Notes under the pieces: model-generated
The model's database searches: none
Told to the model about the DNA's origin: nothing
The model's input: the letters and a program-made list of their open reading frames with translations, nothing else
Shown here: piece by piece, positions 3,290 to 25,964 of the stretch
How positions within the stretch are numbered: position 1 is the stretch's first letter
How the letters are laid out: every line of letters starts with the position of its first letter
Source of the DNA: an uncultured bacterium
GTDB taxonomy: Bacteria; Electryoneota; AABM5-125-24; Hatepunaeales; Hatepunaeaceae
Assembly (NCBI GenBank): GCA_964387885.1
Contig: CAYLYZ010000084.1
Location: forward strand, 1-25,964
Length of the DNA: 25,964 nt
Direction of reading: 5' to 3'
Made by a program: the position numbers and the translations under genes

Positions 3290-3309
3290 GGGTTGAAAAT
3301 ATTCAACCC
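3290..3309. terminator. Hairpin between convergent genes (GGGTTGAA-aata-TTCAACCC), possible bidirectional terminator
   Basis: A perfect 8-bp stem with a 4-nt loop sits between the stop at 3265 (+) and the stop at 3332 (-). There is no clear U-tract on either strand. Confidence 0.3.
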
Positions 3310-3331
3310 CTACGTCGACATACAATGGAGT

Positions 3332-4993: not shown

Positions 4994-7453
4994 TTACCAT
5001 TCAAATCTTACCCCACCCACAAAGAATAATCCGAGCTGGTGAACCGGCTCTTTAGCATTTATTTCAGGTACATTCGGATCAATTGGTTGAGTAGGATATG
5101 TATAATCAGTAATATTAGCACGATCGAAAACATTCTGCGCTTCGAGAAAAACTATTATTGATCGTCCACCGGTGTACCATTTGCTATCCCACCTGATATC
5201 CAGCTTCGAATAAGCCGGATACCTCGCACTATTAGGAATATCGGATCTTTTCCAGGTATATTTGGATTCAGAATCGTTTTTTGACCAAATCTTCGGTGTA
5301 TAAGGTCTTCCTGATACATATCTGAACCGAGAAGATACTGTGAGTTCATCGCCACTTACGGGCAAAAGGAATGACCAGTAGCCGTACCAGTGCTTTTGGA
5401 ATTTTCGCACCGATAATCCACTGAAATTATATCCCAATACGATCGTTGCAACATCTCGATAATCATAATCTGCCGGATATGTTAGGTTATTAAGCACTTC
5501 GACTGAATCAACATCCTCATAACGGGGAGCAGTAGTTAAGGCTTTTGCAAAAGAATAAGCGGCAGTTCCATACCAGTTATCTGAGAGTTTTTGTTGGATA
5601 AATAGTTCTACTCCACGAGTTTCCTTATTCTTGAGTGAAAGATATTGAAAAGTTTTTTGAGTGCGATTCAAACTATTGGTCATCCATTGGAGGGAAAGGG
5701 GTAGACTGGAATAAAATTTCAGATATCCCTCAATGCTGATCCTGGTGGATTCTGTAAGTAAATAGGAAAATCCTCCAATGTAGTGATCTGCTCTTTTATG
5801 GGGCAATTCCCTGTTAGCCTCATGAGAGAGGTAATCTATTATTGACAGAGCCTGGTAATATCTCCCATAGGCAATCGAACAGGAAATTCGGGAATTTACT
5901 CTCCATTTGGCAGAAAGACGCGGTGCTAAAGTTACATCATCGGAGAATTCAAATCCATCAATCCTTAACCCTCCCAAAATCGAAAGACTTTCAATCGGTC
6001 TCCAACGATATTGAAGATATCCCCCATATTTCAGCGAAGTCTGCTTCGATTCAATACGCAACTCTTGTTTTTCATCATCCCCACCGTCCGCGGCATCAAT
6101 ACTTGTAACAATGTCATCTTCACTCAACTGCAGCCATACATCATGAGAATATGTAATTGGCTTAAGCGAAATTCCCGCGAATAATTGATCAACGTTCCTT
6201 GTATTTAGTGTCAGGTTAACGTGTACCTGATCGGTCGTTTCAGTGCTTCGTGCAAAAGCGTAAAGGTTGCTTATTCTTTCACCTACAACATTCTCATAGA
6301 CATCAAATAAATCATAGCTGCCGGAAATTTGACTCCGTCCAATAACAAGTTCCGTAAATCCCCTGTCCATCAGCATGCGCAAACGAGCACCAAGGGCTAC
6401 TGTATGATCTTTGGCATCGATTGTCTCTGCACCGCGTGACCAGGCACCTTCTTCCATGGCATCAATTTTAACCCAATCTTTTAAATAAAGGCCAAACACG
6501 GAAATGTTGGTTGTTGGTGAGGGAAACGAAGATATTTTAAACTGTGAGTCCCAGAAATAGGGTACTGCAGGTAATTCGAGCTGATCCTTAAGAATATCAA
6601 TATAACTCCTTCTGAACGACAACAAGTATGATCCGTTAGTTAATGGTATTCCACCTTCGAGATTTAATCCGACACTTGCAACGGAAGTCTCTAGCTGACC
6701 TCTGAAATTATCCTTATCTCCATCTCGGAGCTCTAAATCGAGTATACTTGATAATTTATCACCGTATTTTGCTGAAAATCCTCCGGTTGAAAATGTAACA
6801 TCCTCGAGAAATTCAATGTTAACAGCACTCATTGGACCACCCGAGGTTGTGGGATCGGGGAAGTGATTGATATTGTCAATTTCCAATCCATCAATAATTG
6901 TCAAATGTTCTGCAAAGCTCCCGCCTCGTACGATAATTTCATTTGTTAGATCATTCTGACTGAAAACACCTGGAATAGCCTGAATTGTTCTCAACACATC
7001 TTCGAAAGCTCCCGGAGCTCTCCTGACTTCTTCATAACTCAATGTTTGGGTGGAAGATGGTAGGTTAGGTTTATCCTGGAAATATCCACTTCTGACAGTA
7101 ACTTCCTTCCCTTTGATTACCGTTGGATCGAGATGAAACTCAAGTGTCACCACTCTACCAGCTGAAACTGAAACTTCTCCTCGCGACATACTTGCAAATC
7201 CTAATGCGCTGGCAGTAATATGATAGGTTCCCGGTTTGAAACCTTGAATGATAAACCGACCATCAAGATCAGATGCAGCGCCAATATCCGTCCCAGCCAC
7301 TACAATATTTGCCCCCGGGATGGGAGAAAGATTGGAAGAATCTAAAACTCTTCCCTTTACACTTCCGGGATTAATCTTTGCATGTACTGAACAACTGCAT
7401 GAAAAAACGACCACGCAGAAAATCGTTAACACGATCTTTTTGTAGCAAAACAT
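4994..7453 (-). CDS. TonB-dependent outer-membrane receptor with N-terminal carboxypeptidase-regulatory-like domain
   Basis: 819 aa with a signal peptide. It has a CarbopepD_reg-like segment (GRVLDSSNLSPIPGANIVVAGTD...GRF), a plug-like region (FSTGGFSAKYGD) and a C-terminal aromatic residue (..GVRFEW) typical of OM beta-barrels. Confidence 0.7.
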   Translation of the reverse strand: MFCYKKIVLTIFCVVVFSCSCSVHAKINPGSVKGRVLDSSNLSPIPGANIVVAGTDIGAASDLDGRFIIQGFKPGTYHITASALGFASMSRGEVSVSAGRVVTLEFHLDPTVIKGKEVTVRSGYFQDKPNLPSSTQTLSYEEVRRAPGAFEDVLRTIQAIPGVFSQNDLTNEIIVRGGSFAEHLTIIDGLEIDNINHFPDPTTSGGPMSAVNIEFLEDVTFSTGGFSAKYGDKLSSILDLELRDGDKDNFRGQLETSVASVGLNLEGGIPLTNGSYLLSFRRSYIDILKDQLELPAVPYFWDSQFKISSFPSPTTNISVFGLYLKDWVKIDAMEEGAWSRGAETIDAKDHTVALGARLRMLMDRGFTELVIGRSQISGSYDLFDVYENVVGERISNLYAFARSTETTDQVHVNLTLNTRNVDQLFAGISLKPITYSHDVWLQLSEDDIVTSIDAADGGDDEKQELRIESKQTSLKYGGYLQYRWRPIESLSILGGLRIDGFEFSDDVTLAPRLSAKWRVNSRISCSIAYGRYYQALSIIDYLSHEANRELPHKRADHYIGGFSYLLTESTRISIEGYLKFYSSLPLSLQWMTNSLNRTQKTFQYLSLKNKETRGVELFIQQKLSDNWYGTAAYSFAKALTTAPRYEDVDSVEVLNNLTYPADYDYRDVATIVLGYNFSGLSVRKFQKHWYGYWSFLLPVSGDELTVSSRFRYVSGRPYTPKIWSKNDSESKYTWKRSDIPNSARYPAYSKLDIRWDSKWYTGGRSIIVFLEAQNVFDRANITDYTYPTQPIDPNVPEINAKEPVHQLGLFFVGGVRFEW

Positions 7454-7557: not shown

Positions 7558-7627
7558 TTGACTGACATGTAATTATTGCTTACTTTGCACATATGTTATG
7601 TGATAATGGACATTTGTACACATTATG
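7558..7627 (+). promoter_or_regulatory. Putative promoter/operator region of the BMC operon: TTGACT -35-like, extended -10-like TGtGATAAT, and phased ACATnTGT palindromic motifs
   Basis: TTGACT is at 7558-7563 and TGTGATAAT at 7599-7607. ACATGT is at 7566, ACATATGT at 7589, ACATTTGT at 7610 and ACATTATG at 7620, spaced about 10 or about 21 bp apart. Confidence 0.3.
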
Positions 7628-8584
7628 CTAAAGACATCGGAAAAAACATCATCGCTTGTGGATGTAGCAAGGTTATACTACGAGCATGATTACAGTCAGC
7701 AGGACATTGCGAGAAAACTCGGGATTTCACGACCCAGTGTCTCGAGAATGCTGCAAAAGGCTCGAGAATTGGGCATAGTCCGAATTAAGATCTATGATCC
7801 TGAACAGCGAGGTTCGCATCAGGAAAAAGCTTTACAACAAATATACGGGCTCAAAAAGGTAATTCTCGTACCTAATGAGGACGCAACGGATCTAGTAATT
7901 AAGCAGAGGTTGGGATTTGTAGCGGCCAGATACCTTGACGAACTTCTTGAGGATGGTCTCACAGTTGGGGTTTCCTGGGGATCAACGATGCAGGAGGTTG
8001 TTAAGCACCTTCAGCACAGGACAATTCGCAACATGACGGTAGTTCAACTGAATGGTGGAATTTCGAGAGCAGAGTATAACACTCATGCAAGCGAGATTGC
8101 GCTGAAAATAGGAAAAAACTATCAGGCGATACCCTTTCTGTTGCCGTTACCGGCGATAGTCGACCAGGTACGAGTCAGAAGAGCGATTATTACCGATAAA
8201 AACATTGCCAAAACACTAAATCTTGCAAGAGAAGCTCAAATTGCAATGTATACCGTTGGAGCTTTCAGCTTCAACTCTGTGCTTGTAAAAGCTGATTACT
8301 TCGAGACTGAGGAAGTTGAAGAACTTTTAACCGACAAGGCAGTAGGTGATATATGTTCGCGGATAATTGATGAAAATGGGAACATATGTAACTCGAAGCT
8401 CAATGCCCGGACAATTGGTATAAGTCTAAGTGATTTAAAAAAGAAGAAATACGCTATTGCAGTCGCAGGTGGCATGGAAAAGCTCAACGCAATCAGAGCT
8501 GGATTGCGAGGTAATTATTTTAATGTACTTATCACAGATGAGTGGGTTGCTTCAAAGCTATTAGAAAACGCTGACATTTCCTGA
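7625..8584 (+). CDS. SorC/DeoR-family sugar-phosphate-binding transcriptional regulator
   Basis: N-terminal HTH ([41 protein letters not shown]) is typical of SorC/CggR/B. subtilis DeoR. The C-terminal region is a sugar-binding domain. The gene leads the BMC operon. Confidence 0.8.
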
Positions 8585-8594
8585 AATAAAGAAT

Positions 8595-10004
8595 ATGAAT
8601 TCATCTGAAAAACAAATTATCGCAATAGGTTCCGATCATGGTGGTTACCAACTTAAGGAAAAACTAAAAGAATACCTGACTCGCAATGGATTCAATGTAA
8701 ATGACTGCGGAACTTTCAGCACTGAGGATGTTGACTATCCGAAATTCGCATATCTGACCGCGAAGGAAGTTTCAGATGGGAACGCACATTTCGGCATAAT
8801 CGTCGATGGTGCAGGAATTGGTTCGGCTATGACAGCAAATAAAGTTGGGGGTATACGAGCTGCACTCTGCTACGATGTTTCATCAGCAAACAACGCACGT
8901 GAACATAATAATGCCAACGTTTTAACACTGGGCTCCGGATTAATAGGGGAAAACCTGGCCAAACAGATTTGCGATAAATTCCTGTCAGTAGACTGTACCG
9001 TTGACCGACACCTTAAACGGGCAAGTATGATTGATGAACTTGACAAAGGTATAATCCCGTTTTCTGCAATTAATGCTTCAAAGACCAGCAATAAAAAGGA
9101 CAATCACCCGATGGAATTGTCAAGTCAGGATCTAACTCGTATTGCAGATCGAATACGAGAAATGCTCTCAACCGATGTTGCAGAACCTAAAAAACATCAG
9201 AGCGCTTGTGGTGATGCAAACTGTAATAATTGTGGTCATTGTGCTGAAAAAACTCCGGATACAATAAGAAAATATCTTGACCTTGGTGCGGGAAGGATTT
9301 CTCATAAATCAGGTTCAGGTTACATTCCAAAGGATATTGCTGGAATTATCGACCATACAATACTCAAACCGGATGCGACCGAAGATGACATTATCACACT
9401 TTGTAACGAAGCTCGCGAACATGGATTTGCTTCGGTTTGTGTGAATCCTACCTTTGTGTCTCTGGCAAGGAGAGAACTTGTTGGTACTGACGTTCAGGTT
9501 TGTACGGTAGTAGGTTTCCCTCTTGGTGCGCACATGTCAGAGATTAAAAGTATGGAAACCCGACGTGCTATTCGTGAAGGTGCACGAGAAATCGACATGG
9601 TTATAAATATCGGAGCCCTGAAAAGCGGGAAAGATGATCTCGTTTACGACGACATTCGCAAAGTGGTGGATGCATGCGAGGATGGAGGCGCTCTAAGCAA
9701 GATAATTATTGAAGCTGCACTTTTAACAGATGATGAAAAGATCCGAGCCTGTCAACTCTGCAAACGAGCTCGTGCCAATTATGTTAAAACCTCTACCGGA
9801 TTCGCTCCCGGTGGCGCAACAGAAAAGGATGTCGCCCTGATGAGCAGTGTGGTGAAAGACTCCGGGATAGGTGTTAAAGCTGCCGGTGGGATAAAAGATT
9901 ATAAAGATTTTGAAAAGATGGTTTCGGCAGGTGCCACGAGAATTGGTGCCAGTGCCGGGATAAAGATTGTTCAGGGAGCCAGGGAAGTTACGGTCTCGAA
10001 TTGA
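8595..10004 (+). CDS. Fusion protein: ribose-5-phosphate isomerase B (RpiB/LacAB) N-domain + deoxyribose-phosphate aldolase (DeoC/DERA) C-domain
   Basis: Residues 1-150 carry [13 protein letters not shown]...[18 protein letters not shown] (RpiB fold). Residues about 245-469 carry [12 protein letters not shown]...CVNP...YVKTSTGF, the DERA Schiff-base Lys motif. A 50-aa linker with an amphipathic helix and a C-x4-C-x2-C-x2-C motif joins them. Confidence 0.8.
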
Positions 10005-10028
10005 ATGCTGTGTGTATATCACCTGTAG

Positions 10029-10048
10029 GGGCGAATAATCATTCGCCC
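10029..10048. repeat. GC-rich palindromic element copy (GGGCGAAT-aatc-ATTCGCCC)
   Basis: A perfect 8-bp stem. It belongs to an approximately 26-nt element, TGTAGGGGCGAATAATCATTCGCCC. Confidence 0.5.
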
Positions 10049-10102
10049 TTAGTAGCAAGTGAACAGCATTTAGGTCATGTCCTACAAAGTAAGATTTGTT
10101 TT

Positions 10103-10129
10103 GGGCGAATAATTATTCGCCCCTACGAC
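10103..10129. repeat. Inverted copy of the same palindromic element (GGGCGAATAATTATTCGCCCCTACGA)
   Basis: A 20-nt perfect palindrome. Its reverse complement is near-identical to the element at 10024-10048, forming an inverted doublet about 55 nt apart. Confidence 0.5.
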
Positions 10130-10163
10130 AGTAAAATCTTTTATATAAAGGGGAGGTAAACTC

Positions 10164-10787
10164 TTGGTAGACCTTCGCGCATACGTTTTTTTAGATAGTA
10201 TTCAACCACAGTACGCGGCATATCTCGGTACAGTGGCAAAAGGTTTTTTGCCTATTGCAGGCATGGCATCGCTGTATGTCGAGATTTCACCTGGCATCGA
10301 GATCAACAGGATTACAGATATTGCTCTGAAATCGACGAACGTGACTCCCGGGATGCAAATCGTTGAGCGACTCTATGGAATGCTTGAAATTCATTCTAAT
10401 TCGCAGGCAGATGTTCGGCAAGCGGGACAAGCAATTCTCGAAGCCCTTGATCTTAAGGAAGAGGACAGGTGGAAACCAAAGATCTACTCACAGCAGGTCA
10501 TACGACGAGTGGACGACCACCAGACACAGCTAATTAACCGGATGCGGTTTGGAAATATGATTATCCCTGGTGAAACGTTATTTGTCATGGAAGTTGCTCC
10601 CGCTGCGTATGCGGCTCTTGCAGCAAATGAAGCAGAAAAAGCTGCTGAAATCAACATCCTCGATGTACGTGCATTTGGAAGTTTTGGCAGAGTCTACCTT
10701 GGTGGTGAAGAACGCGATATTGATGTCGGTTGGCGTGCTGCCGTTAAGGCAATTGAAGAAGTTACAGGAAAAGAACAATCTAAATAA
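10164..10787 (+). CDS. BMC shell protein, tandem BMC-domain (BMC-T) with 33-aa N-terminal extension
   Basis: Two canonical BMC domains are present: [25 protein letters not shown] resembles PduA ALGMVET...ADAMVKSANV, and [29 protein letters not shown]...G...[13 protein letters not shown] is the second. TTG start with a GGGAGG SD 7 nt upstream; an alternative ATG at 10263 would begin directly at domain 1. Confidence 0.55.
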
Positions 10788-10801
10788 ATTTTGGAGAAGA
10801 A

Positions 10802-11116
10802 ATGGCAGAAGCACTGGGAATGTTGGAAACACGCAGTTTTCCTGCGGTAGTCGAAGCCGCTGATGCTATGGTAAAAGCTGCAAAAGTTGAATTAGTATCA
10901 TACGAAAAAACAGGTGGCGGGTATGTCACTGCTATTATCCGTGGTGATGTAGCTGCAGTTAAAGCTGCCTGCGATGCCGGTCGTGCGGGAGCTGCGAGAG
11001 TAGGTGAAATCGTTGCTGTTCATATCATTGCCCGTCCGCATTCTAATGTTGACTTTATCATGCCGCTTGGTCGTGAGGAAGATGGCAAGGCGGGAATGGA
11101 GCGTCTTAGTAAATAG
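10802..11116 (+). CDS. BMC-H hexameric shell protein (PduA/EutM/CcmK family)
   Basis: [60 protein letters not shown] is a textbook BMC domain (PF00936). Confidence 0.9.
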
Positions 11117-11135
11117 TCGCTCTTAAGGAGGTATT

Positions 11136-11435
11136 ATGGTTCTCGCCAAAGTTGTCGGGACATTGGTTTCGACACAAAAAGAAGAGAGTCTCGAGGGGCT
11201 GAAATTCCTGATACTGCGCAATGTTGAGATCAATGGCAAAGTCGGCAAAGGTTTTGTAGTCGCAGCTGATGGTGTGGGAGCTGGTATAGGAGAAATGGTT
11301 TTGTACGCAAGTGGCAGCTCAGCCCGTCAAACCAAATTGACCGAAAACCGCCCCTGTGACTCAATTGTTATGGCAATTGTTGATAATTGGGAAGTTGACG
11401 GGAAGTTAAAGTACAAGAAGGGAGTTAACGATTAA
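11136..11435 (+). CDS. BMC-P pentameric vertex protein (EutN/CcmL/PduN family), paralog 1
   Basis: MVLAKVVGTLVSTQKEESLEGLKFLILRNV...GFVVAADGVGAGIGEMVLYASGSSAR is the EutN/CcmL signature. A strong AAGGAGG SD precedes it. Confidence 0.85.
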   Translation: MVLAKVVGTLVSTQKEESLEGLKFLILRNVEINGKVGKGFVVAADGVGAGIGEMVLYASGSSARQTKLTENRPCDSIVMAIVDNWEVDGKLKYKKGVND

Positions 11436-11486
11436 GAGTGATTATTACATATCACTCGAATTGTATGGGCACGATGCTCGTGCCCA

Positions 11487-11505
11487 TTACTTCTTTGTTC
11501 AAGGT
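11487..11505. repeat. GC-rich hairpin GGGCACG-atgct-CGTGCCC (member of GGGCR..YGCCC family)
   Basis: 7-bp GC stem followed by ATTAC, lying between the BMC-P gene and the aldehyde dehydrogenase gene. Confidence 0.5.
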
Positions 11506-11540
11506 TTCGACTTTTAATGATATCGTTATCAATCAAACAG

Positions 11541-11559
11541 GGGCACGGGCACCGTGCCC
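11541..11559. repeat. GC-rich hairpin GGGCACGG-gca-CCGTGCCC (second copy of pair)
   Basis: 8-bp stem followed by TTAC, 35 nt downstream of the previous hairpin. Confidence 0.5.
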
Positions 11560-11603
11560 TTACGCTTTAACAGCATCTAATAATTATTAATTATGGAAGA
11601 GCT

Positions 11604-13055
11604 GTGTCCCGGTTAACAGACGAACAAGTAAATATCATTGCTGCTGAAGTCATAAAGCAACTTAAACAACCTGAATCCGGAAATTCTTCAGATAGAAGCA
11701 AAACAGCTTCTGCTCCATTAACATCGTTCGGAGCAGGAATCTTTGCCGATATTGATTCAGCAGTTAAGGCTGCACGTCTGGCTCACGAAAGGCTTGTGAG
11801 TATGACACTTGAGCAACGAAAAAAAATAATTTCGAACGTTCGCAAGCGAATGCTCGAGGCAACTGAAGAATTGTCTCGAATGGCGCTCGAAGAGACCGGC
11901 CTTGGTAGGTTCGAAGATAAAATTCAGAAAAACAGACTTGTTACGCTGAAAACTCCGGGAACAGAAATTCTTCAGCCAACAGCATGGTCGGGTGACAGAG
12001 GACTTACATTGATGGAATTGGCTCCTTATGGTGTTATAGGAGCAATAACTCCTGTTACCAACCCAACATCGACGATCATATGCAATTCAATTGGCATGGT
12101 TGCTGCTGGAAACGCAGTGGTATTTAACGTTCATCCAAGTGCTAAGAATACCAGCATCAGGAATATTATCCTGCTCAATGAAGCAATAACTGAAGTTGGT
12201 GGACCGGAGAATGTCATTACATGCATATCAGAGCCTACAGTAGAGAGTGCTACTGAGCTGATGCACCATCACGGTGTCAGGTTGTTAGTCGTAACAGGTG
12301 GTGGTGCAGTAGTTAAGGCAGCTATGAACAGCGGGAAACGGGCTATTTGTGCAGGACCCGGTAATCCTCCAGCTGTCGTTGATGAAACCGCAGATATCGA
12401 TCTTGCTGCAAAAAGCATTGTTGCAGGTGCTTCTCTCGATAACAACATTATCTGTGTACTCGAGAAGACCGTCATAGCGGTTGATTCTATCTCCGATTCA
12501 CTCATTGAAGCATTTCAAAGACACAATGCGGTATTGCTGACACAAGAGCAGTTCAACCAATTAGAACCGATTATCTTCTCAAAGACTAACGGACCGCGCA
12601 AATATGCAGTGGTGGACAAAGATTTGATCGGAAAGAACATACAGGTGATTCTTTCGAAAATCGGAATGACTGTACCTGATAATATCCGACTTGCGGTGGT
12701 TGAGGTAGATGCGGATCATCCCCTGGTCTGGACTGAACAGATGATGCCGGTAATGCCATTGGTCAGGGTATCTGATGTAGATAAAGCAATTGAGCTTGCC
12801 AGGGAATCCGAACATGGTTACCAACATACAACAGTTATGCACTCGACCAACATCAACAACCTTTCAAAAATGGCGCGAGAGATGAATTGCAGTATATTTG
12901 TCAAGAATGCACCCGGACCTGCCGGCCTGGGATATAACGGCGAAGGTTATTGTTCATTCTCAATTGCGAGCCCAACCGGTGAAGGATTGACGAATGCGCG
13001 GAGTTTTTCCCGCGAGAGGCGTTGTACGTTAGTTGATAATTTCAGAATTGTATGA
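11604..13055 (+). CDS. CoA-acylating aldehyde dehydrogenase (PduP/EutE-like BMC aldehyde dehydrogenase) with N-terminal encapsulation peptide
   Basis: GTG start. ELAPYGVIGAITPVTNPTSTIICNSIGMVAAGNAVVFNVHPSA and the catalytic Cys motif LDNNIICVLEKTV match PduP/EutE. The N-terminal amphipathic helix TDEQVNIIAAEVIKQLKQ plus a Ser/Ala linker looks like an encapsulation peptide. Confidence 0.85.
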   Translation: MSRLTDEQVNIIAAEVIKQLKQPESGNSSDRSKTASAPLTSFGAGIFADIDSAVKAARLAHERLVSMTLEQRKKIISNVRKRMLEATEELSRMALEETGLGRFEDKIQKNRLVTLKTPGTEILQPTAWSGDRGLTLMELAPYGVIGAITPVTNPTSTIICNSIGMVAAGNAVVFNVHPSAKNTSIRNIILLNEAITEVGGPENVITCISEPTVESATELMHHHGVRLLVVTGGGAVVKAAMNSGKRAICAGPGNPPAVVDETADIDLAAKSIVAGASLDNNIICVLEKTVIAVDSISDSLIEAFQRHNAVLLTQEQFNQLEPIIFSKTNGPRKYAVVDKDLIGKNIQVILSKIGMTVPDNIRLAVVEVDADHPLVWTEQMMPVMPLVRVSDVDKAIELARESEHGYQHTTVMHSTNINNLSKMAREMNCSIFVKNAPGPAGLGYNGEGYCSFSIASPTGEGLTNARSFSRERRCTLVDNFRIV

Positions 13056-13663
13056 TTAGAAGATATCCTGCAATAGCCCTGCTTGAATTATCCGGAATCT
13101 CCCGTGGTGTCGTAACAAGCGATGCAATGGTCAAACGAGCTCCGATAACGATGATAAAGTCGGGGACGATCTCGGAAGGTAAGTATCTTATCCTCGTCGG
13201 GGGAAGTGTCGCTTCAGTCGAGGAAGCTTTTGCTGCCGGAATGTCAATCGGGGGAAATTCAATTATCGATCATGTAATCCTGCCGGATGTTCATACCCAG
13301 GTTCACGATTCGATACTCGGAACAAAACGTAAACCAGCTGCTGATGCATTGGGATTAATTGAAACGAGCACTGTAGCTGCAACTATCAGATCGATGGATG
13401 CTGCGATCAAAAGTACAAAGATAGATATTGTCGAATTGAGGTTGGGTGATAACCTTGGCGGAAAAGCATTTGCTATATTCTCCGGCAAGGTCGAAGATGT
13501 ACAAACTGGAATGGACATTATTCATGAAGTATCAGGCGGGAAAGAGTATTTGACTGCAGAAGAGATTATCCCGAGATTGGCTGATGTGATAGGCAAACAA
13601 CTCGAATCAGGCAGCAGATTTGCTGAAATCAGGGCCAGCATATTAGAAGACGGGGAGCTCTGA
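13052..13663 (+). CDS. BMC-T tandem-domain shell protein (PduT-like)
   Basis: Two BMC domains: IALLELSGISRGVVTSDAMVKRAPITMI... and ALGLIETSTVAATIRSMDAAIKSTKIDIV... It overlaps the aldehyde dehydrogenase stop by 4 nt (ATGA). Confidence 0.75.
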   Translation: MIRRYPAIALLELSGISRGVVTSDAMVKRAPITMIKSGTISEGKYLILVGGSVASVEEAFAAGMSIGGNSIIDHVILPDVHTQVHDSILGTKRKPAADALGLIETSTVAATIRSMDAAIKSTKIDIVELRLGDNLGGKAFAIFSGKVEDVQTGMDIIHEVSGGKEYLTAEEIIPRLADVIGKQLESGSRFAEIRASILEDGEL

Positions 13664-13664
13664 T

Positions 13665-13952
13665 ATGATGTTGGGAAGGGTATTCGGTACTGTCACGGTC
13701 AGTGTAGTTTACGAGGGATTGGAGGAGACTCCGATGCTGCTCGTGCAGCCTCTCGATAAACGCCAACAGCCTGAAGGTGATTTCGTTGTCGCAGCCGATC
13801 CGACACGAATGGCAGGACCGGGCGAGCTGATATACTACGAAGCCAGCCGCGAAGCCGCCTTACTGTGTGATCCCTGGTTCGTCCCTGTAGATCATGCGAT
13901 AGTTGGGATAGTCGACGACGTCCACCTCTCAAACCACCCGGACGAGCAATGA
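13665..13952 (+). CDS. BMC-P vertex protein (EutN/CcmL family), paralog 2
   Basis: MMLGRVFGTVTVSVVYEGLEETPMLLVQPLD...DFVVAADPTRMAGPGELIYYE is an EutN-like fold signature. Confidence 0.75.
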   Translation: MMLGRVFGTVTVSVVYEGLEETPMLLVQPLDKRQQPEGDFVVAADPTRMAGPGELIYYEASREAALLCDPWFVPVDHAIVGIVDDVHLSNHPDEQ

Positions 13953-14209
13953 AAATCGGACGCGTCAGCGGAACTCTGCACAGCACTATCAACCATCCTT
14001 TTTACGACAACAGGAAAATCCTCGTCGTAGACTTGCTAAGCCCGGACAAAACCGAAACCGGAAAATACTTGATCGCATTAGATGTTGTTGATGCCGGAGT
14101 AGGGGAGACGGTGCTGATCGTTGATGAAGGCAACTCCGCCCGGCAGGTTTTTGATGCGAAGAATGGCCCTGTCCGGTCTGTGATTGTAGGAATTGTAGAC
14201 GAATATTAG
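13949..14209 (+). CDS. BMC-P vertex protein (EutN/CcmL family), paralog 3
   Basis: MKIGRVSGTLHSTINHPFYDNRKILVVDLLSPDK...YLIALDVVDAGVGETVLIVDEGNSARQ. There is an ATGA overlap with the previous gene. Confidence 0.8.
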   Translation: MKIGRVSGTLHSTINHPFYDNRKILVVDLLSPDKTETGKYLIALDVVDAGVGETVLIVDEGNSARQVFDAKNGPVRSVIVGIVDEY

Positions 14210-14401
14210 GTTGGAATCTGCAGAGTGCATAAGCGTGCATTGAGCAATTCGTTATAAACCACATCCTGATAATCTGTGCACCCAATATTTAGCCAAAGAA
14301 TATGCTAACAAAGCTTCTGTTTCCTAAATCTTAGTAAGAATTGATTCACACTTGCGCAATATGGCGCATCTGTTGCGTATTTTTACACATTTCTTTACGT
14401 T

Positions 14402-17576: not shown

Positions 17577-17607
17577 GAAAGTTCTCCGATAGTTCAGTTT
17601 ATTTACA

Positions 17608-17642
17608 AGTCCCGATTTTTGTGAAAATCGGGACTTTTTTCT
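17608..17642 (+). terminator. Rho-independent terminator of the FG-GAP/T9SS gene
   Basis: AGTCCCGATTTT-tgtg-AAAATCGGGACT has a 12-bp stem and is followed by TTTTTT. Confidence 0.75.
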
Positions 17643-17666: not shown

Positions 17667-17693
17667 GTGGAGTGCTCAAGCCACGCTTGAGCA
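17667..17693 (+). repeat. REP copy 1 (GGAGTGCTCAAGCCACGCTTGAGCA), followed by second hairpin TCGAAGC-aaa-GCTTCGA
   Basis: Palindromic stem TGCTCAAGC/GCTTGAGCA. The same unit recurs five more times around the transposase gene. Confidence 0.7.
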
Positions 17694-17770
17694 TCGAAGC
17701 AAAGCTTCGAACAAAACTGATACTGAGTTCATGCGTTAACTCGATGCAAAACTTTCCATCCAACAAAATA

Positions 17771-17794
17771 GCTCAAGCATGGCTTGAGCACTCC
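17771..17794 (-). repeat. REP copy 2 (inverted orientation)
   Basis: GCTCAAGCATGGCTTGAGCACTCC is the reverse complement of GGAGTGCTCAAGCCATGCTTGAGC. It lies 9 nt from the transposase stop. Confidence 0.7.
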
Positions 17795-17802
17795 ATAATC
17801 CT

Positions 17803-18324
17803 CTAAAAGTCATCAACAATATTTAATCTATCTATCGGCAATGATAATATCTCATTATAAAATCCCTTTTTACTATTCTCAATAAACCAACCTGCAGAAC
17901 AAAACGGGTAATCCAGGGGATTTTCAACCAAACCATGTTTTACCGGATTGTAGATCACGTATTTCATTCTGGCAAAATAGCTTTTTTCATTGCTAATGCA
18001 AGTATCCCAGTATTGATACCAAATTCTCCTGCCCGGACAGTAATCTATCTTATTTACCAATCGCGAAGCCTGAGAATGTATTCTTTGAATTGTGTTCTTC
18101 AGAGGTTTAGAATCTTCAGTGGAACATGCAATCAGATGATAATGATTTGCAAACACTGCCCAGGCAAGTATTTGCCAGTTATATTCATCCAAAACGTCCA
18201 ATATAGTTTTAGTCAGGATTGATAACTTTTTTTCTGTGTTAAAGAATTTTGCTTTCTGGTAGGTACTTGCAGTGATTATATAAAACGAGTTGTGTTGAAA
18301 AATGTGTAAAGGTCTGTGAGACAT
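17803..18324 (-). CDS. REP-associated tyrosine transposase (RAYT; IS200/IS605-like HUH Y1 transposase)
   Basis: 173 aa with the HUH motif (ANHYHLI) and a C-terminal catalytic Tyr motif, YVIYNPVKHGLV. It is flanked by inverted REP copies. Confidence 0.75.
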   Translation of the reverse strand: MSHRPLHIFQHNSFYIITASTYQKAKFFNTEKKLSILTKTILDVLDEYNWQILAWAVFANHYHLIACSTEDSKPLKNTIQRIHSQASRLVNKIDYCPGRRIWYQYWDTCISNEKSYFARMKYVIYNPVKHGLVENPLDYPFCSAGWFIENSKKGFYNEILSLPIDRLNIVDDF

Positions 18325-18337
18325 TCTTATGTCCTTC

Positions 18338-18483
18338 TGGAGTGCTCAAGCCATGCTTGAGCGTTTGCGAAAATTATTCAAAACAAAAAGCTAAATTATG
18401 GAGTGTTCAAGCCATGCTTGAGCGTTTGCGAAAATTATGCAAAACTCCAATCTATTTGTGGAGTGCTCAAGCCATGCTTGAGC
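18338..18483 (+). repeat. Tandem ~62-bp repeats each beginning with a REP (copies 3, 4, 5)
   Basis: The units are GGAGTGCTCAAGCCATGCTTGAGCGTTTGCGAAAATTATTCAAAAC..., then GGAGTGTTCAAGCCATGCTTGAGCGTTTGCGAAAATTATGCAAAAC..., then GGAGTGCTCAAGCCATGCTTGAGC. Confidence 0.7.
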
Positions 18484-18564
18484 TTAAAAGAAATTAATCC
18501 GAAGTTTATATATAAATACAACTTAAATTTAACTACCACCCATCTTTCGAAGCTTCACTTCGAT

Positions 18565-18589
18565 GCTCAAACATGGCTTGAGCACTCCA
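18565..18589 (-). repeat. REP copy 6 (inverted), with adjacent CGAAGC-ttcac-TTCG second hairpin as in copy 1
   Basis: The reverse complement, GTGGAGTGCTCAAGCCATGTTTGAGCATCGAAGTGAAGCTTCGAAAG, aligns with copy 1 plus its second hairpin. Confidence 0.65.
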
Positions 18590-21653: not shown

Positions 21654-21683
21654 CGCAGGGGCAATTCGTGAATTGCCCATGCG
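21654..21683. repeat. GC-rich hairpin CGCAGGGGCAATTCgtGAATTGCCCATGCG (GGGCR..YGCCC family)
   Basis: 9-bp core stem plus a 4-bp outer extension with one G.A mismatch. Confidence 0.5.
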
Positions 21684-21708: not shown

Positions 21709-21728
21709 GGGCACGTAGCAACGTGCCC
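21709..21728. repeat. GC-rich hairpin GGGCACGT-agca-ACGTGCCC
   Basis: Perfect 8-bp stem, 25 nt downstream of the previous hairpin; the paired arrangement matches the other two sites. Confidence 0.5.
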
Positions 21729-21730
21729 GT

Positions 21731-21767
21731 ACAAAAATAAAGCTGGCAGACGAGAACGCCTGCCAGC
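21731..21767 (-). terminator. Probable Rho-independent terminator of the tricorn-like protease gene (minus strand)
   Basis: On the minus strand the hairpin CTGGCAG-gcgttctcgt-CTGCCAG is followed by CTTTATTTTTGT. It lies about 145 nt after the stop at 21913. Confidence 0.5.
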
Positions 21768-25275: not shown

Positions 25276-25340
25276 TTAAGACCTCTTGATGTGCTTATTG
25301 CCTCAAACTGGCGGGTTATGAATAGTGTTTATAGTTCAAA

Positions 25341-25373
25341 ACAACAAAAGGGGCTGTTAACACAGCCCCTTTT
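25341..25373 (-). terminator. Rho-independent terminator of rpmE (structure symmetric/bidirectional)
   Basis: AAAAGGGGCTGT-taac-ACAGCCCCTTTT has a perfect 12-bp stem. On the minus strand it is followed by TTTTGTTGTTTT. Confidence 0.7.
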
Positions 25374-25385
25374 GAAAAATCATGA

Positions 25386-25592
25386 CTACTTCTTGTTGAG
25401 ATTGTATTTCTGGTAGTATTTCTCAACTCGCCCAGCAGTGTCAACCAGTTTCTGTTTTCCAGTGTAAAACGGATGGCATTCTGAGCATATTTCGACCTTA
25501 ATCTCACCAACCGCGGTGCGGGTTTCGAAAGTGTTACCGCATGCACAGCTGATTTTTGCAAGATTATAAACCGGGTGTATTCCTTCTTTCAT
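25386..25592 (-). CDS. rpmE: 50S ribosomal protein L31
   Basis: [26 protein letters not shown]...[12 protein letters not shown] carries the L31 signature, including the Zn-ribbon Cys pairs. Confidence 0.85.
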
Positions 25593-25964
25593 TATTTCCC
25601 TCTGTATTTATGTTCACAGATGCAACTCGTACAACAATCACATCCTGAAGAATTATCATCTTGAAGCTTTTTAATATAATATGTTAGATGTTGTCTGGCA
25701 AGTTTTTCTGGGTAATAAACAGCATTATTTCAGATATTCCCTAACCGCATAGCTGATTACACGTGCTTTTGATTTGTGATTCCTTCGCACTGTATGTACG
25801 AGAATGAGGTGATATGTAGAATAGGCATTCCCGCCTATCCATCCATCTCTAGACGGATTCGTTGTAAGTAACTGTTATTTCAGGAATCCGCCTATCAGCG
25901 GATTGTCAAACAGGAACAGTCTGTCCAAGAATAGCTCTTTGAAAACGCGTTACTTATGTAAGTG

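Follow-up and report, generated by a model that had tools for sequence, protein, structure and literature searches.

We consider it likely that a set of short GC-rich hairpins, found in pairs between genes of an uncultured marine bacterium, are units of a GTAG-tagged family of repetitive extragenic palindromes (REPs) arranged in head-to-head, REPIN-like pairs. The hairpins lie on contig CAYLYZ010000084.1, whose 25,964 nucleotides, the whole stretch analysed, are called the window throughout; two of the pairs occupy gaps within a bacterial microcompartment (BMC) operon. Judged from the orthologous sequences of relatives, the units are lineage-specific insertions into intergenic DNA and not part of the ancestral BMC operon. 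An incidental effect of the pairs on the stability of the operon mRNA is plausible, by analogy with other bacterial REPs.

Hairpin units and dimers in the window

A first-pass annotation of the window had reported six perfect hairpins in three pairs, and direct reading of the three sites, together with an exhaustive scan for perfect hairpins, found all six, each with a GGGC...GCCC foot. Their number is far beyond chance. The pattern GGGCR N2-16 YGCCC has nine matches in the window against 0.46 expected from dinucleotide-preserving shuffles of the window (n=100), none of which reached nine, and the tagged pattern GTAN-GGGY-N12-RCCC has four matches against 0.03 expected. Among the loci fetched (~400 kb), perfect GC-rich hairpins with a GTA tag were seen only in the window lineage, in a relative at 80% identity and in a related metagenome-assembled genome (MAG), with none in the ~330 kb that came from other, unrelated lineages. 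A chance origin of the hairpins is ruled out by the shuffles and by this absence. A seventh unit, a singlet, was found beyond the six hairpins of the annotation. The units, with their scores against a covariance model of all seven, are:

Unit 1a, 10025..10048, plus strand: GTAG-GGGCGAAT-aatc-ATTCGCCC; hairpin at 10029-10048; left half of dimer 1, 20 nt past the RpiB-DeoC stop; 31.8 bits
Unit 1b, 10103..10126, minus strand: GTAG-GGGCGAAT-aatt-ATTCGCCC; hairpin at 10103-10122, with the same arms as 1a; right half of dimer 1, ending 37 nt before the BMC-T start; 32.8 bits
Unit 2a, 11463..11485, plus strand: GTAT-GGGCACGA-tgc-TCGTGCCC; hairpin at 11467-11485; left half of dimer 2, 27 nt past the BMC-P stop; 28.8 bits
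Unit 2b, 11541..11563, minus strand: GTAA-GGGCACGG-tgc-CCGTGCCC; hairpin at 11541-11559, read on the forward strand as GGGCACGG/gca/CCGTGCCC; right half of dimer 2, ending 40 nt before the aldehyde dehydrogenase start; 26.9 bits
Unit 3a, 21655..21678, plus strand: GCAG-GGGCAATT(C)/cgtg (or gt)/(G)AATTGCCC; hairpin at 21659-21678, GGGCAATT/cgtg/AATTGCCC; left half of dimer 3, outside any operon; 27.6 bits
Unit 3b, 21709..21732, minus strand: GTAC-GGGCACGT-tgct-ACGTGCCC; hairpin at 21709-21728, read on the forward strand as GGGCACGT/agca/ACGTGCCC; right half of dimer 3; 32.0 bits
Singlet, 3290..3313, minus strand: GTAG-GGGTTGAA-tatt-TTCAACCC; between convergent LVIVD and Rce1-like genes; 29.1 bits

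Some details of the first-pass annotation needed correction. It had placed the first hairpin of pair 2 at 11487-11505, 20 nt from its actual position, and had described the element shared by pair 1 as 26 nt long; the shared element is the 24-nt GTAGGGGCGAATAAT(C/T)ATTCGCCC, since the base before GTAG differs between the copies (T and C). The two members of pair 2 do have similar tails, as it had stated, but these differ by an extra A (GTGCCC-A-TTAC and GTGCCC-TTAC) and not by an a/t substitution, and the tails are the outward-facing family tag read on the opposite strand.

Each unit is 23-24 nt long: an unpaired GTAN-type tag is followed by a perfect stem of 8 bp (at most 10 bp) that closes a loop of 3-4 nt. 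The foot of the stem is GGGC/GCCC in six units and GGGT/ACCC in the singlet. In all units but one GTA has the same offset, and throughout it is on the outer side of the dimers; the full tag is GTAG in three (1a, 1b and the singlet), with GTAT in 2a, GTAA in 2b, GCAG in 3a and GTAC in 3b. In an alignment of the seven units, all 49 of 49 cells are paired, three foot pairs are invariant and four of the seven pairs, the distal ones, change on both sides. Stem pairing is thus apparently maintained through compensatory change, on a measure that is biased because the units were picked as hairpins.

All three dimers are inverted and head-to-head with their tags outward. Dimer 1 is a homodimer, dimers 2 and 3 are heterodimers, and their spacers (54, 55 and 30 nt, respectively) are unrelated in sequence. 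On reading the three sites, neither target-site duplications nor direct repeats were seen at the borders of the doublets. The spacer of dimer 1 (10049-10102) contains an inner pair, GTAG (10052-10055) and CTAC (10082-10085), with no hairpin between, possibly the remnant of a nested unit or else a coincidence. Directly after the BMC-P stop, and shortly before unit 2a, there is an AT-rich perfect hairpin (GAGTGATtattacatATCACTC, 11437-11458).

Every one of the seven units falls in intergenic DNA, which makes up 10.9% of the window. Dimers 1 and 2 are in unidirectional gaps of the operon, the singlet is in a convergent gap and dimer 3 is in a unidirectional gap on the minus strand. The source genome was read over ~35 kb, the window and an 8.9-kb extension of it, and the covariance model found no further copies there; its one match outside came from locus L021 of the related MAG (E 0.015). 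Strain contigs of the source marine metagenome population are identical at all hairpin sites, with a single nucleotide polymorphism within a spacer.

Resemblance to known repeat families

In a survey of GTAG- and CGTC-tagged REPs (Di Nocera et al. 2013, PMC3733652), the GTAG units measure 20-40 bp and have an unpaired GTAG-like tag, a loop of 2-4 and a stem of 6-9 bp that can reach 13 bp. Their subfamilies differ by alternative complementary stem residues, and their dimers, which may be homo- or heterodimers, are 20-100 bp apart, most commonly have the tags outside ('HH'), and can fold separately or as one large stem-loop; they favour unidirectional and convergent gaps between open reading frames (ORFs), near the upstream 3' end (PMC3733652). 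The REP of Stenotrophomonas maltophilia is GTAG followed by an 8-bp perfect palindrome with a 3-nt loop (Corneloup et al. 2021, PMC8266576). The window units have in common with this superfamily (especially S. maltophilia SMAG, the group-3 REPtron) a GTAG-like tag, though one that is degenerate in part of the units, the 8-bp perfect palindrome, the loop of 3-4 nt, complementary stem changes, head-to-head homo- and heterodimers at 20-100 bp, and a position near the upstream stop codon in unidirectional or convergent gaps. Their host, a marine FCB-group bacterium that probably belongs to Calditrichota, falls outside the phyla surveyed. The first-pass annotation had offered, as one alternative, a second miniature family resembling REPs or bacterial interspersed mosaic elements (BIMEs), and this reading is supported: format and layout fit the published GTAG REPs, and relatives have other elements, or none, at the orthologous sites.

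Several observations weigh against this assignment. REPs are defined by high genome-wide copy number, whereas seven units at four sites were found in the ~35 kb read. The tags are partly degenerate, with variants in four of the seven units (GTAT, GTAA, GTAC and GCAG) and all four bases at the fourth position; published degenerate tags are of the GYAG/GTRG type (PMC3733652), which GCAG fits and the other three do not. The S. maltophilia REP-associated tyrosine transposase (RAYT) needs the tag for cleavage, which is abolished by GTAC and nearly abolished by GCAG (PMC8266576). With six different stems among seven units, the set is more varied than a REP family within a single genome usually is. 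Identical units are found in many phage contigs with no RAYT nearby, so their dissemination may not depend on a RAYT. Finally, no RAYT flanked by GTAG-GGGC units was found on examining the RAYT of the window, its homologs and 2.8 Mb of fetched loci, although REPtrons can be absent from a REP-bearing genome (PMC3733652).

Three other known systems share part of this format. REPINs, reportedly described in Pseudomonas fluorescens by Bertels and Rainey in 2011, likewise comprise two inverted REPs and a short spacer; the doublet can fold as one long hairpin, as dimers 1 and 2 can here, and appears to be the repeated unit in place of the single REP. REPINs are, however, defined with a cognate RAYT and hundreds of copies, and the REP units of Pseudomonas are imperfect palindromes, whereas the window family is known from seven units. 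The REPs and BIMEs of Escherichia coli share the GTAG tag and an intercistronic location in operons, but the E. coli REPs are longer, imperfect and bulged, and their BIMEs have Y/Z units and linker motifs, none of which is in the window. The subterminal hairpins of IS200/IS605 elements and of their miniature derivatives also combine a hairpin with an adjacent tetranucleotide (TTAC-like), on which a Y1 HUH transposase acts in single-stranded DNA; those hairpins are two different ones on the same strand around a transposase gene or its remnant, whereas the window units are inverted with no coding remnant between them.

A GGAGT-tagged REP family and its RAYT

The window does encode a RAYT, and it is linked to a different REP:

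17803..18324, minus strand: RAYT gene, matching NCBIfam NF047646 (REP_Tyr_transpos) at 106 bits against a cut-off of 80 bits

The protein carries an HYH motif and the Tyr in YVIYNP, and its gene is flanked by six copies, within 17669-18588, of a GGAGT-GCTCAAGC-cat-GCTTGAGC REP. This GGAGT-tagged REP is a family separate from the GTAG-GGGC units, as the first-pass annotation had recognized when it distinguished the hairpins from the RAYT-associated REP. RAYT homologs elsewhere (L059-L062; including P0122 and P0126) are likewise flanked by GGAGT-tagged and not GTAG-tagged REPs. Because the RAYT of the window and its homologs have GGAGT-tagged flanks, the GGGC family is left without a visible cognate RAYT. 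A degenerate copy of the GGAGT REP (cagagtGCATAAGCgtGCATTGAGCa) is present at 14222-14247, ~10 nt past the last gene of the BMC operon.

The related MAG, Calditrichaeota JABGPL01, was sampled over 50 kb. In a scan of species-representative genomes, the RAYT-linked GGAGT REP was found on seven of its contigs, mostly in inverted pairs, tags outward, with 40-55 nt between the two units, which is the layout of the GGGC pairs in the window. Its locus L021 holds, at 1743-1766, GCAG-GGGTTGAA-aacc-TTCAACCC, nearly identical to the window singlet. Locus L011 of the same MAG has, next to toxin-antitoxin genes, a GTAG...CTAC doublet in which the GGTGGAAT/ATTCTGCC arm is degenerate.

Gene context and predicted folds

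The BMC operon is of the sugar-phosphate type and runs on the plus strand from 7625 to 14209, in the order SorC-like regulator, RpiB-DeoC fusion, BMC-T, BMC-H, BMC-P, aldehyde dehydrogenase, BMC-T and two BMC-P. Dimer 1 sits between RpiB-DeoC and BMC-T, and dimer 2 between BMC-P and aldehyde dehydrogenase. Other genes of the window encode a tricorn-like protease (minus strand) and several proteins with a type IX secretion system (T9SS) sorting domain. By Pfam, the first-pass annotation had named the RpiB-DeoC, BMC-T/H/P, aldehyde dehydrogenase and tricorn-like genes correctly.

Dimers 1 and 2 are predicted to be co-linear with the operon transcript, where the left and right units of each would pair with one another to give a single long hairpin of about 25-30 bp (-57.4 kcal/mol, z -6.2, for dimer 1; -59.2 kcal/mol, z -6.7, for dimer 2). 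The minimum-free-energy fold of dimer 3 is two separate hairpins, and the predicted energies of single units range from -10.6 to -16.9 kcal/mol. The tricorn gene has a canonical terminator (21742-21767, minus strand); dimer 3 comes just past it and is unlikely to act on the tricorn transcript. No Rfam family matched at gathering score across the whole window, and over 9950-11650 there were only chance-level matches (E 0.36 and 0.73).

Two further observations concern the ends of the window. The assemblies that carry the tricorn gene all end at most ~750 nt beyond it, just past the ribosomal protein L31 gene (window right end ~25276-25964; L004-L007); that they all stop there suggests a repeat that breaks the assemblies. 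On the other side, a gene for a 5038-residue protein starts ~7.9 kb left of the window (L008 1-1025), and the best match of its first 341 residues is a choice-of-anchor D protein of a Calditrichaeota MAG, at 33% identity.

Orthologous BMC loci

Homologs of the RpiB-DeoC fusion gave more than 20 related loci with conserved gene order. The two gaps that hold dimers in the window, RpiB-DeoC to BMC-T and BMC-P to aldehyde dehydrogenase, in that order, compare as follows:

Window: 159 and 168 nt; GTAG-GGGC doublets
L023-L026 (80% identity): 287 and 216 nt; different GTAG doublets and a second hairpin family
L027 (64%, Calditrichaeota): 73 and 94 nt; no hairpins
L065 (65%): 17 and 39 nt; no hairpins
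62-64% clade: about 30-37 and about 11-20 nt; no hairpins
58-59% clade (large marine contigs): 22-743 and about 120-340 nt; repeats resembling miniature inverted-repeat transposable elements (MITEs)

In L023-L026, both gaps hold a doublet of the form GTAG-CGCAGGC-gtccct-GCCTGCG ... CGCAGGC-agggac-GCCTGCG-CTAC and, beside it, inverted doublets of a second, untagged family, CCGTCAGGTG-tcct-CACCTGACGG, which in L023 are at 9969-10033 and 11518-11581. Between strains of this relative (L024, L025) there are indels of 19 and 26 nt, through which parts of a REP are lost or doubled. The gaps of the 58-59% clade contain unrelated MITE-like imperfect palindromes (GTTTGTCTCCCTGAG..., TCGTCATGCTGAGC... 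and GTCATTGCGAGGA...), the presence of which varies among close relatives; examples in L035-L046 are L037 7396-8094 and L038 7396-8138. In three loci of this clade, the gaps include a small ORF flanked by CACAGAT/CACGGAT word repeats, which, judged from its sequence, looks GxxExxY-like. Since the same junctions hold each lineage's own repeats, or none, the hairpins are best seen as insertions and not as an ancestral regulatory structure. A conserved operon structure was rejected on comparison with L023-L027 and L028-L065.

The first-pass annotation had suggested that the hairpins set the ratio of shell to enzyme. As a designed or conserved feature this idea is not supported: the operon works in many relatives whose gaps, 11-40 nt long, are free of hairpins, and the singlet and one of the doublets are outside the operon. 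A softer form of it, compatible with a REP origin, is that the doublets have been exapted: retained at enzyme/shell boundaries, they would act as RNA hairpins that tune the amounts of RpiB-DeoC, shell proteins and aldehyde dehydrogenase. Three lineages independently hold palindromic repeats at the same junctions, the eight hairpins of L023 in 20 kb all fall within the two operon gaps, dimers 1 and 2 are predicted to be very stable in mRNA, and the hairpins are invariant across the strain contigs of the population, where the sole polymorphism seen is in a spacer. Nevertheless, many relatives keep the same operon with no hairpin, the gaps that bear repeats are simply those where genes do not overlap, the repeats of other lineages also occur outside the operon, and the strain-level indels in L024 and L025 speak against strong constraint. 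We therefore regard exaptation as possible but unlikely.

Occurrence in phage contigs

Units identical to GTAG-GGGCGAAT... and GTAG-GGGCAATTC... lie between genes in many uncultivated phage contigs, of GC content 0.34-0.70. The 15-mer GTAGGGGCGAATAAT had 70 matches in IMG/VR, a number near chance for a 15-mer; 40 of the 70 extend into the complete hairpin, (C/T/G)ATTCGCC, which was absent from the query, and these come from at least 25 contigs (GC 0.43-0.65) with up to nine copies per contig. The pattern GGGCAATTC-NN-GAATTGCCC was found in IMG/VR at 54 sites in 30 stretches (GC 0.34-0.70). Of these sites, 44 are tagged, and a contig can have as many as 10 copies; the units typically read GTAGGGGCAATTCATGAATTGCCCCTAC, with the stem that window unit 3a also has. 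With the looser pattern GTAGGGGC-N10-14-GCCCCTAC, 57 of 87 sites among the matches listed have at least three further complementary pairs, and the distal stems, again among the matches listed, are diverse (ACGT and ACGG included). The occurrence of many different distal stems on a common tag and foot indicates that tag and foot are the conserved part and that the distal stem is free to vary.

Other units of the window recur as well. An identical tagged copy of unit 2b is present in phage contig L146, the same hairpin is in L096 and L136, and phage contig 3300014204_000362 (GC about 0.47) holds both GGGCGAATAATTATTCGCCC and GGGCACGG-gca-CCGTGCCC, the hairpins of units 1b and 2b. Viral scans for the GGGCACGG and GGGTTGAA stems returned mostly untagged, chance-level matches, and only L096, L146 and L136 (GGGCACGG) and L183 (GGGTTGAA) were counted as family. 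The GTAG unit of the 80% relative was likewise found at 16 sites in viral contigs. The RAYT-linked GGAGT REP had no match in IMG/VR contigs, and GenBank phages, PLSDB plasmids and Rfam gave no match to the unit. The unit sequences were not found printed in the literature searched.

The carrier contigs belong to genuine tailed phages, Mu-like in the case of L070 and L086 and with head, tape-measure and tail modules in that of L160 and L172, and the hairpins are placed between co-directional genes. In L086, the stop codon of an ORF of the PHROG transposase family (MuA-like) falls in the loop of a GTAC-GGGCGAATAATTATTCGCCC-CTAC unit at 5316-5335, so that the hairpin overlaps the end of the ORF. 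In L160 (286-611, 2169-2327, 9536-9665 and 10869-11220), GTAG-GGGCAATTC hairpins are found amid the word repeats CGCAGAT, CGCAGAG, AATCCTGT and CAGGATT. Such embedding hints that the hairpins are parts of larger, composite repeats between genes. That identical units recur across divergent GC contents might reflect phage-mediated spread or horizontal transfer of a matching enzyme, both being possibilities.

An alternative to the REP assignment is, then, a hairpin family that does not depend on a RAYT, is spread by phages or by some other enzyme, and serves mainly as an intercistronic RNA element (a stabiliser or U-less terminator) in phage and host operons. It would account for identical units between co-directional structural and early genes of tailed phages. 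A RAYT hidden Markov model run over the 2.8 Mb of fetched loci found only those loci fetched as RAYT loci, tblastn with RAYT homologs found nothing in viral loci L066-L122, and both GTAG subfamilies have many viral matches where the RAYT-linked REP has none. On the other hand, little can be read into the lack of a RAYT on phage contigs, where a single-copy host gene would not be expected to turn up; the GTAG tag with a perfect 8-bp stem is exactly what group-3 RAYTs use (PMC8266576); and this account comes with neither an identified enzyme nor U-tracts. We find it decidedly unlikely. We are just as sceptical of a bolder form, in which the GTAG-GGGC hairpins are a pan-environmental, phage-carried, RAYT-independent intercistronic RNA family whose repeated capture at BMC enzyme/shell junctions was selected to set cistron ratios, in place of neutral colonisation of gaps.

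Terminators and other explanations

Like intrinsic (Rho-independent) terminators, the units are short GC-rich stem-loops downstream of genes; they differ in having a conserved tag and foot, in forming inverted pairs inside an operon and in lacking a U-tract. The first-pass annotation had stated that U-tracts are lacking, which is right for six of the seven units on reading of the sites; unit 2a has a T-rich tail, TACTTCTTTG, and is flagged by a terminator scan that, for the window as a whole, is at chance level (seven found against 6.1 expected). The hypothesis that the units are factor-independent terminators or attenuators can appeal to this tail and to stems that are stable and GC-footed. 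However, the organism has canonical T-run terminators elsewhere in the window (17607-17636 and 25345-25374, besides that of the tricorn gene), the doublets are symmetric on both strands, and termination would split the operon, yet there is no convincing promoter downstream. We judge this hypothesis very improbable.

Still less can be said for a conserved, BMC-specific cis-regulatory RNA structure belonging to the design of the operon. Two of the three doublets are indeed inside the operon between enzyme and shell genes, but the third and the singlet are elsewhere, the orthologous gaps of the related loci have unrelated hairpins or none of these, and no Rfam family matches; we give the idea almost no credence. 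It is also scarcely credible that the doublets are MITEs moved by a DDE transposase, with the units as terminal inverted repeats: the doublets, 78-102 nt in length, do consist of two inverted repeats, but there is no target-site duplication, the spacers share neither sequence nor length, two doublets are heterodimers, and single units stand alone both here and in phages.

Discussion

Taking the hairpins as GTAG-type REPs, we propose that an enzyme of the HUH/Y1 RAYT type would recognise hairpin and tag in single-stranded DNA, cut and rejoin them, and so spread the units. Only dimer 1 and the singlet keep GTAG intact, and these could still serve as substrates; the units with GTAT, GTAA, GTAC or GCAG, which make up dimers 2 and 3, are probably immobile relics. 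The REP hairpins of E. coli are said, in work by Higgins in 1982 and Newbury in 1987, to stabilise upstream mRNA. By analogy, the hairpins in the operon mRNA would block 3'-to-5' exonucleases, or be sites of processing or attenuation, and a by-product could be shifted relative levels of the RpiB-DeoC, shell-gene and aldehyde-dehydrogenase segments.

For annotation, we suggest that such hairpins be labelled as REP-type repeats, in place of terminators or BMC regulatory elements; that they occupy a gap within an operon is no evidence of designed control of stoichiometry. It is also of note that the same operon junctions have repeatedly been colonised by different repeat families. The findings extend GTAG-type REP doublets to a marine FCB-group lineage in which two REP families coexist, one of them RAYT-linked. 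If confirmed, the recurrence of GTAG-GGGC units in phages of very different base composition would bear on how REPs spread, and units shared with phages might serve as a signal linking phages to their hosts.

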